A stretch of DNA of 64,000 nucleotides from contig CAVXXK010000006.1 in assembly GCA_963765675.1 (NCBI GenBank), forward strand, positions 128,001-192,000, read 5' to 3'. Each line of letters begins with the position of its first letter. The first letter of the stretch is position 1. Below the pieces are notes generated by a model. The model ran no database searches. It saw only the letters and a list, made by a program, of their open reading frames with translations, and was not told the origin of the DNA. Both the position numbers and the translations under genes were made by a program. The DNA comes from an uncultured delta proteobacterium. GTDB taxonomy: Bacteria; Desulfobacterota; Binatia; Binatales; Binataceae. Of this stretch, positions 55,454 through 55,596 are shown in pieces.

Positions 55454-55596
55454 AAAAAAGACGGCGGGCGTCAAAGGAGGGGGGGACTCCTCAACGCCCG
55501 CCAGTTCGTAGCGGCCGCTCGCTTGCGCGAGCGGTTATGCCGGTTGGTGGGAGGAGCATCCAACCAGTATCGGGTGCCAGAGCCATCAGAGCACCC
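55454..55596 (-). ncRNA. Candidate ~143-nt small RNA with four consecutive hairpins and an intrinsic terminator
   Basis: GGGUGC/GCACCC; CUGGUUGG-AUGCUCCUCCCA-CCAACCGG; CCGCUCGC-GCAA-GCGAGCGG; GGCGGGCGUUGAGGAG-UCCCCCC-CUCCUUUGACGCCCGCC then GUCUUUUUU; AT-rich region upstream; no credible ORF. Confidence 0.65.

Follow-up and report, generated by a model that had tools for sequence, protein, structure and literature searches.

A stretch of 64,000 nucleotides from contig CAVXXK010000006.1 (positions 128,001 to 192,000; the window, in what follows) derives from an uncultured member of the Binataceae, a family of widespread, uncultured soil and peat bacteria. On its minus strand, between a divergent aldo/keto reductase (AKR) gene and a lipoprotein gene, the window carries a predicted small RNA (sRNA) of about 146 nt. 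Sequence comparison indicates that the locus is a conserved small non-coding RNA gene confined to Binataceae; it is well supported as a gene, and the predicted sRNA represents a new RNA family of a known kind. The reading that we favour, and hold with moderate confidence, is that of a stand-alone, Binataceae-specific riboregulator that would depend on an extracytoplasmic function (ECF) sigma factor for its transcription, act without an RNA chaperone, and present loops directed against Shine-Dalgarno (SD) sequences. The features of the locus are collected in Table 1.

Folding of the minus strand from 55598 to 55453 yields four consecutive hairpins followed by U6. The minimum free energy of this fold is −73.7 kcal/mol, compared with −51.55 ± 3.91 kcal/mol for 200 dinucleotide shuffles (z −5.66), none of which folds as well (0/200). 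Minimum free energy and centroid structures agree, and no alternative anti-terminator fold is apparent. The original prediction had described four hairpins ending in U6, with an exposed loop in hairpin 2 (HP2), a GCAA loop in hairpin 3 (HP3), and a UCCCCCC terminator loop, and folding confirmed both these details and their coordinates; the A+T-rich stretch that it placed upstream is likewise real (G+C content of 0.39-0.44 at 55600-55749 vs 0.57-0.74 around it). The loops of HP2 and of the terminator are predicted to be open, with mean unpaired probabilities of 0.74 and 1.00, respectively. The terminator consists of a GGCGGGCG...CGCCCGCC stem followed by GUCUUUUUUC, that is, of the G+C-rich hairpin and U-run that characterize intrinsic termination. 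The 3′ end of the predicted sRNA is taken as the end of the U-tract, and its 5′ end, at about 55598-55596, would follow from the position of the −10 promoter box.

Table 1. Features of the predicted sRNA locus and its neighbours (window coordinates).
Feature	Position	Strand	Basis and remarks
Predicted sRNA, ~146 nt	55453..55598	minus	Fold; covariance-model match 55453-55599, 163.4 bits
Hairpin 1 (HP1)	55570..55598	minus	Fold; sequence and length differ among genera
Hairpin 2 (HP2)	55540..55567	minus	Fold; anti-SD loop AUGCUCCUCCCA, 12 nt, 55548-55559
Putative anti-SD seed CUCCUCCC in HP2 loop	55549-55556	minus	
Hairpin 3 (HP3)	55515..55534	minus	Perfect 8-bp stem, GCAA loop; covarying
Single-stranded linker CCGCUACGAAC, 11 nt	55504..55514	minus	Mean unpaired probability 0.84
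Intrinsic terminator	55454..55503	minus	G+C-rich hairpin 55503-55462; C-rich loop UCCCCCC 55480-55486; U6 55454-55459
Promoter P1, −35 box TGAAT (extended TGAATAAT)	55626..55630	minus	Conserved upstream of homologs
Promoter P1, −10 box CGTCTA	55604..55609	minus	Same boxes before ECF sigma operon
Second promoter-motif copy TGAATAAT-N13-CGTCAA	55714..55741	minus	~110 nt upstream of P1
57-aa open reading frame	55599..55772	minus	Overlaps both promoter motifs; judged not a gene
AKR gene, divergent	55836..56843	plus	Pfam Aldo_ket_red, E 7.9e-87
Lipoprotein with BamB/PQQ-like beta-propeller	53577..55238 including promoter; start 55199	minus	Pfam PQQ_2, E 6.5e-19
Lipoprotein promoter TTGACA-N17-CATAGCT	55233-55238 (TTGACA); 55209-55215 (CATAGCT)	minus	

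The fold is backed by the pattern of substitution among homologs. RNAalifold predicted four hairpins from 15 sequences aligned with MAFFT, with compensatory changes in 8 of 42 pairs. In a larger alignment of 61 homologs, which was fitted to a covariance model and leans to the structure of that model, 96.4% of cells pair, against 37.6-46.0% when the partners are slid by one to three columns; both sides change in 21 of the 39 pairs, and none of 500 shuffles reaches any of the observed measures. Within this alignment the HP2 stem shows compensatory changes in 9 of its 10 pairs, and the HP1 helix, 99.2% of whose cells are paired, shows double changes in 2 of 6. A separate MAFFT and RNAalifold analysis of 24 diverse homologs recovered HP2, HP3, and the terminator, with compensatory changes in 18 of 26 pairs; HP1, too variable to align, was not recovered in that set. 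The loops behave differently from the stems. The core of the HP2 loop, CUCCUCC, is nearly invariant among 30 diverse homologs, and the base of the terminator stem (GGCGGGC/GCCCGCC) and the terminator loop, (C)CUCCCCCC, are invariant or nearly so while stems change, the U-run also being kept. The linker CCGCUACGAAC is invariant in 15 closer homologs, and distant homologs widely keep its GAAC alone. Fixed loops on drifting stems are a signature of functional single-stranded seeds, and the alignments indicate that the structure of the predicted sRNA is under selection.

When 60 relatives were searched by BLAST, the hairpin region was recovered from eight genomes of the same genus and from six other genera, with 72-93% identity, the conserved block starting at the hairpins and not at the 57-aa open reading frame (ORF) that ends beside them. 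Searches with a covariance model (R1) built from 15 sequences gave full-length matches in 114 of 151 Binataceae genomes, including 79 of 95 high-quality genomes, and in 23 of 30 genera. In a survey of the order, which contains this family alone, 119 of 151 genomes matched; in a survey of the class 16 of 151 did, every one of them in Binataceae, with no match in 133 genomes from 18 other families of the class or in 150 genomes from elsewhere in the phylum. R1 did not find the sRNA in three genera of the family (g2, 0/3; g8, 0/7; g27, 0/10) or in two incomplete genomes of the same genus (79% and 86% complete). Most genomes have one copy. Two or three occur in another genus (g15), some of whose paralogs are without HP3 and carry an exact CCUCCUCCC loop. 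Alignments A1 and A2 include one unpublished genome (G010) among their rows, which makes it part of R1; it and six others (G027, G075, G091, G103, G116, and G165) were counted in the BLAST of relatives, in the family, order, and class surveys, and in the surveys of sigma factors and Hfq, and no claim depends on unpublished genomes alone.

A second sRNA-like locus (L197-L204, L210, and L211), present in Binatus (g52) and in genus g16, has in common with the sRNA only its 3′ module, GAAACGGCGGGCAUCCGGGAGACUCCCCCCUCCC...GCCCGCC with a U-run; its 5′ hairpins differ, and the GAAT-N16-CGTC promoter is absent. The terminator hairpin with its C-rich loop has the appearance of a module that can be reused.

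The RNA corresponds to no catalogued family. Rfam searches at gathering score gave no match anywhere in the window, and at E ≤ 10 on 55380-55680 they returned just ncS035, CRISPR-DR28, and mir-305, the latter two by chance. The ncS035 model (RF02870, Burkholderia sRNA 35) aligns with the first hairpin and the long terminator hairpin, whereas its middle is unmatched by the Binataceae sRNA, and membership was rejected, the score being 18.6 bits (E 0.028 for the 301 nt searched) against a gathering threshold of 79. The sRNA is also single-copy: a 171-nt BLAST query against the 4.52-Mb genome matches itself, the next match being 23 nt long (E 0.055), and a dispersed-repeat origin is ruled out by this one genomic copy. 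The original prediction of a novel RNA has thus withstood comparison with known models and with repeats, and abundant homologs with compensatory pairs were found for it; its suggestion that RNAs of this lineage may be uncatalogued agrees with the literature searched, which contained no sRNA work on Binatia and described no regulatory RNA for Binataceae.

A dispersed repeat does adjoin the sRNA, outside its limits. This palindromic element, at 55296-55432, is about 115-137 nt long (fold −78.4 kcal/mol), has arms of 38-39 nt that recur unchanged, and is present at about 83 loci in the genome, with a further copy near 4917-5010 of the window and many copies in related genera. Its insertion between the sRNA terminator and the lipoprotein promoter is limited to this genome and its closest relative.

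Transcription of the sRNA appears to start from a conserved promoter. The motif GAAT-N16/17-CGTC lies directly 5′ of HP1 in all 81 homologs with enough flanking sequence, at a spacing of 16 in 64 of them and of 17 in the other 17, and its usual form at the sRNA is TGAATAAT-N13-CGTCT(A/C)A. The strict pattern occurs twice in the whole genome (4.5 Mb), both times at the sRNA locus. Of the 9 same-genus genomes printed, 8 (all except G008) share the second, upstream copy, which the 6 genomes from other genera lack; a longer form of the transcript could arise from it.

According to PMC8103513, the hallmarks of ECF sigma factors are promoters with ‘AAC’ at −35 and ‘CGT’ at −10, co-transcription with an anti-sigma factor, and autoregulation. 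The best of 12 Sigma70_r4_2 matches in the genome is a 192-aa ECF sigma factor (C3:174192-174770) with the Pfam domains Sigma70_r2, r4_2, and Sigma70_ECF, whose best NCBIfam match is RpoE at 139.6 bits, under the equivalog cut-off; its gene is followed by that of a zf-HC2 anti-sigma factor with an HxxxCxxC motif. The sigma gene is preceded in this genome by TGAAT-N17-CGTCTAA, and TGAAT-N16/17-CGTCTA stands before the orthologous sigma/anti-sigma operon at 30 of 30 loci and at 20 of 20 further loci from 12 additional genera (16 genera altogether), within surrounding sequence that varies. Elsewhere in the genome the motif has few other intergenic sites, the best matches being at the sRNA itself. 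By this match to the boxes of a putatively autoregulated ECF sigma gene the sRNA promoter is classed as ECF-type, and the core RpoE-like ECF sigma factor, present in 143 of 151 family genomes, most likely drives the sRNA.

Among the other sites is an intergenic TGAAT-N17-CGTCTAA at C1:1612948 (minus strand); the 619-aa ORF that begins 17 nt beyond it has an N-terminus resembling a signal peptide and is a further candidate for the ECF regulon. The ECF sigma gene has a conserved TTG start about 7-12 nt past the CGTCTA box at 50 of 50 loci (C3:174159-174200 and the 49 orthologous loci L148-L196), and the ATG of the lipoprotein gene follows its own −10 box by about 9 nt (window 55199-55238). Leaderless or very-short-leader mRNAs may be common in Binataceae.

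In the reading that we favour, a stress sigma factor probably activates the sRNA, which in turn probably silences mRNAs by covering their ribosome-binding sites. The core RpoE-like ECF sigma would be kept bound by its membrane zinc-finger (HxxxCxxC) anti-sigma factor until a stress signal frees it; transcription from TGAAT-N16-CGTCTA would follow, ending at the intrinsic terminator, and the sRNA would accumulate. Its exposed C/U-rich loops, CUCCUCCC in HP2 and (C)CUCCCCCC in the terminator, would then pair with target mRNAs at their G-rich SD regions (GGGAGGAG, GGGGGAG) and keep ribosomes from binding, with no need for Hfq, so that the sRNA would form the repressor arm of the ECF regulon. The 3′ end of the 16S rRNA in this genome is canonical (...CACCUCCUU), and the sRNA loops contain its CCUCC core; copying the anti-SD core of the cell's own 16S rRNA, they are complementary to SD sites. 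Predicted duplex energies are −16.7 kcal/mol for the HP2 loop with GGGAGGAG and −22.5 kcal/mol with UGGGAGGAGCAU, and −19.4 kcal/mol for the terminator loop with AGGGGGGGA. Hfq (PF17209) was found in none of 61 family genomes from 27 genera, this genome included, and was detected in the control genomes.

Several observations weigh against this reading. The 61-sequence alignment, as stated, favours the structure of its own model, and a simple sigma-70/terminator scan detected nothing promoter-like and passed over the sRNA terminator, whose stem has internal bulges. The spacing between TGAAT and CGTC in this genome is 16 at the sRNA and 17 at the sigma gene, and in distant genera the −10 box of the sRNA is CGTCGAA vs the CGTCTAA kept at the sigma gene; no co-variation of the −10 box between the two promoters was seen across genera, the sigma gene retaining CGTCTA(A/C). 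The ECF sigma factor is also present in the sRNA-less genera g2, g8, and g27, and, as it is nearly universal, the co-occurrence of sRNA and sigma factor does not discriminate. Complementarity to SD sites is in itself weak evidence, for any C-rich loop fits any strong SD site. Exact complements of at least 10 nt to the HP2 loop number 68, including its own antisense strand; they lie mostly inside coding sequence, and no functional theme emerged among them. Among the 35,225 crude candidate starts of this genome, the start region of the neighbouring AKR gene takes rank 90. In this genus (AAGGAGCAUC, 9-11 bp) and at two other loci the pairing with it is extended, and Binatus AKR offers just a 6-bp GGAGGA about 13 nt from the AUG; AKR was accordingly rejected as a conserved target and is retained as a weak lead for this genus. 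Finally, no transcript of the sRNA was seen: a soil metatranscriptome containing a tenth of the words of the locus gave two contigs from a related strain on the 5′ part of AKR (55823-56074) and none on the sRNA, and three other runs were empty, though such data, consisting of contigs only, are uninformative on expression.

The most serious of the alternatives accepts a real stand-alone RNA and assigns its loops another partner: the C-rich loops would serve to bind a protein or titrate it, or else would sponge up G-rich RNAs, with HP1 and HP3 providing specificity. That the scans found no conserved mRNA target is in keeping with this proposal, as is the dedicated small protein CcaF1 that binds CcsR RNAs according to the portion of PMC8034643 consulted; the C-rich terminator module common to the second, otherwise different sRNA-like locus would also suit a common protein or RNA partner. 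Against it, neither a DUF1127 protein nor Hfq was found in this genome, the invariant loop matches the anti-SD core of 16S rRNA, and loops of this kind pair with mRNAs in the families already known to have them. We regard it as unlikely.

A bolder version of SD pairing, which we consider improbable, would make the sRNA the main output of the ECF sigma factor and a free-floating copy of the 16S anti-SD sequence, serving as a chaperone-free global switch between two modes of translation initiation. Under stress the sRNA would occupy strong GGAGG-type sites genome-wide, and translation would move towards leaderless or SD-less mRNAs, in place of the regulation of a few targets. The mRNAs thereby favoured would appear to include the message of the sigma factor itself and the short-leader messages of both neighbours of the sRNA.

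The arrangement of the neighbouring genes bears on whether the sRNA is a transcription unit of its own. The sRNA lies just upstream of AKR, on the opposite strand, at 61 of 69 related AKR loci, and the same lipoprotein family lies downstream of it at 53 of 57 loci. With the lipoprotein gene co-directional and the neighbourhood conserved on both sides, the hairpins could be pictured as a cis-acting 5′ leader or attenuator, in which the ECF promoter would drive the BamB-like lipoprotein, most transcripts would end early at the hairpins, and the short RNA would be a by-product or a leader-derived sRNA. The lipoprotein gene, however, has a promoter of its own (TTGACA-N17-CATAGCT) at 17 of the 19 loci printed (not L068 or L126), about 9 nt before the start codon, which leaves almost no leader. 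The spacer between the sRNA terminator and this promoter varies in sequence and in length, from about 50 to 250 nt, and holds the inserted repeat in this genome; an anti-terminator fold is, as noted, not apparent. Because of the separate lipoprotein promoter and the variable spacer the leader explanation is ranked low. On the other side, a back-to-back sigma-70-like promoter was read from sequences of the AKR gene in Binatus. With a conserved promoter and terminator of its own, and with both neighbours having theirs, the predicted sRNA holds as a stand-alone transcription unit, as the original prediction had it.

At the 8 of 69 AKR loci that are sRNA-less, a filter-free search with the model found nothing better than E 0.4. 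Seven of these loci were printed, and they show no ECF-like motif save one pattern match in L108, read as lying within the coding sequence of the neighbour. In five of the seven the divergent neighbour was read as a small GlsB/YeaQ-like membrane-protein gene. Upstream of an AKR paralog without the sRNA there are three tandem units, each about 95 nt long (L104:900-1500).

The 57-aa ORF qualifies one statement of the original prediction, namely that no minus-strand gene ends here, for this frame ends exactly at HP1. We read it as a chance, non-coding frame over the promoter region, since it belongs to no Pfam family, lacks a conserved start, stop, or length, and overlaps the promoter boxes. The ATG-started 57-aa form exists in 1 of 9 same-genus genomes, lengths drift from 28 to 62 aa, some same-genus frames run into the RNA, and the region is nonexistent outside the genus, the RNA there being separated from the AKR start by about 100 nt. 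It is therefore very improbable that the hairpins form the 3′ untranslated region and terminator of a gene for a small protein (the 57-aa ORF or a shorter one of 31 aa), or belong in this genus to a dual-function mRNA from the 55714-55741 motif. In favour, the ORF ends at HP1, its distal half has a second promoter-like motif upstream, several same-genus genomes retain both the frame and an ATG(A/G)AUCGCG start context, and a small ORF is often co-transcribed with cuckoo RNAs (PMC8034643). Against, the RNA is conserved far beyond the ORF, and reading the promoter boxes in frame yields the conserved ‘MNNRD..PSK’ residues. A peptide inside the sRNA was also rejected, the 35-aa TTG frame not being conserved.

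The closest functional parallel is with the cuckoo RNAs of alphaproteobacteria, a comparison already drawn in the original prediction, of which the functional resemblance stands and family membership does not. Cuckoo RNAs are defined, in the accessible portion of PMC4615179, by two to four adjacent hairpins with CCUCCUCCC in each loop, and such anti-SD loops occur in the stress-induced CcsR RNAs (PMC4615179, PMC8034643, both available in part). Like CcsR1-4 of Rhodobacter and NfeR/alpha-r14 of Sinorhizobium, as these are described there, the Binataceae sRNA has adjacent hairpins, compensatory drift of its stems, and a fixed anti-SD loop, which here reads GCUCCUCCC (8 of the 9 letters of the motif) and in some genera exactly CCUCCUCCC. 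The likeness extends to a stress sigma factor (presumed in the present case), a modular number of hairpins, multiple copies in some genomes, and a conserved intergenic slot. On the other hand, GCUCCUCCC is found in one of the four loops, the terminator loop being a C-run (UCCCCCC or CUCCCCCC) and HP1 and HP3 unrelated, and no cuckoo model matched the window at gathering score or 55380-55680 at E ≤ 10. The association with DUF1127 proteins (CIN1 neighbourhood), as reported in the consulted part of PMC8034643, is also missing, PF06568 not having been found in the genome; the 57-aa frame beside the sRNA belongs to no Pfam family, and the neighbouring genes are those of AKR and of the beta-propeller lipoprotein. 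Homologs occur in Binataceae only, and not in the alphaproteobacterial range recorded for cuckoo RNAs; the promoter is of ECF type in place of the RpoHI/HII type described for them, and Hfq was not found. The sRNA thus resembles the cuckoo/CcsR RNAs and is not a member of that family.

MicA, RybB, and MicL of enterobacteria use single-stranded 5′ seeds and Hfq. The Binataceae sRNA differs from them in having loop seeds and in belonging to a family with Hfq in 0 of the 61 genomes surveyed, and it has no sequence or structure similarity to them. They are RpoE-dependent sRNAs that give an activator-only sigma factor a repressor arm, as outlined in the available part of PMC8103513, and the likeness lies in a stand-alone sRNA behind a strong ECF-sigma promoter, identified here by motif match. 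In mode of pairing the sRNA is closer to 6C, whose C-rich loops act without chaperones by G-C-rich loop pairing (PMC6486639, in part). With 6C/B11 of actinobacteria and RsaE/RoxS of Firmicutes it has in common C-rich loops suited to G-rich ribosome-binding regions and independence of a chaperone (PMC6486639, PMC6158497, and PMC8216469, each in the portion available); it differs in having no Rfam match, in its four hairpins with a terminator-loop seed, in lineage, and in promoter.

Elsewhere in the window, a 1467-aa ORF at 44653-49056 (minus strand) was read, from sequence alone, as a fatty-acyl reductase-like/acyl-CoA synthetase-like/acyltransferase-like fusion.

The locus would supply a well-supported new RNA family fit for an Rfam entry, together with a clear regulatory hypothesis that runs from an ECF sigma factor and its membrane zinc-finger anti-sigma factor through the sRNA to SD sites as targets. 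If true, this hypothesis would mean that the C-rich loop seeds of cuckoo, 6C, and RsaE RNAs were independently re-invented in a lineage without Hfq, and that, at a great distance from enterobacteria, an ECF sigma factor has for a second time gained a repressor arm through an sRNA. The locus would also provide a compact promoter-sigma pair for an uncultured group.

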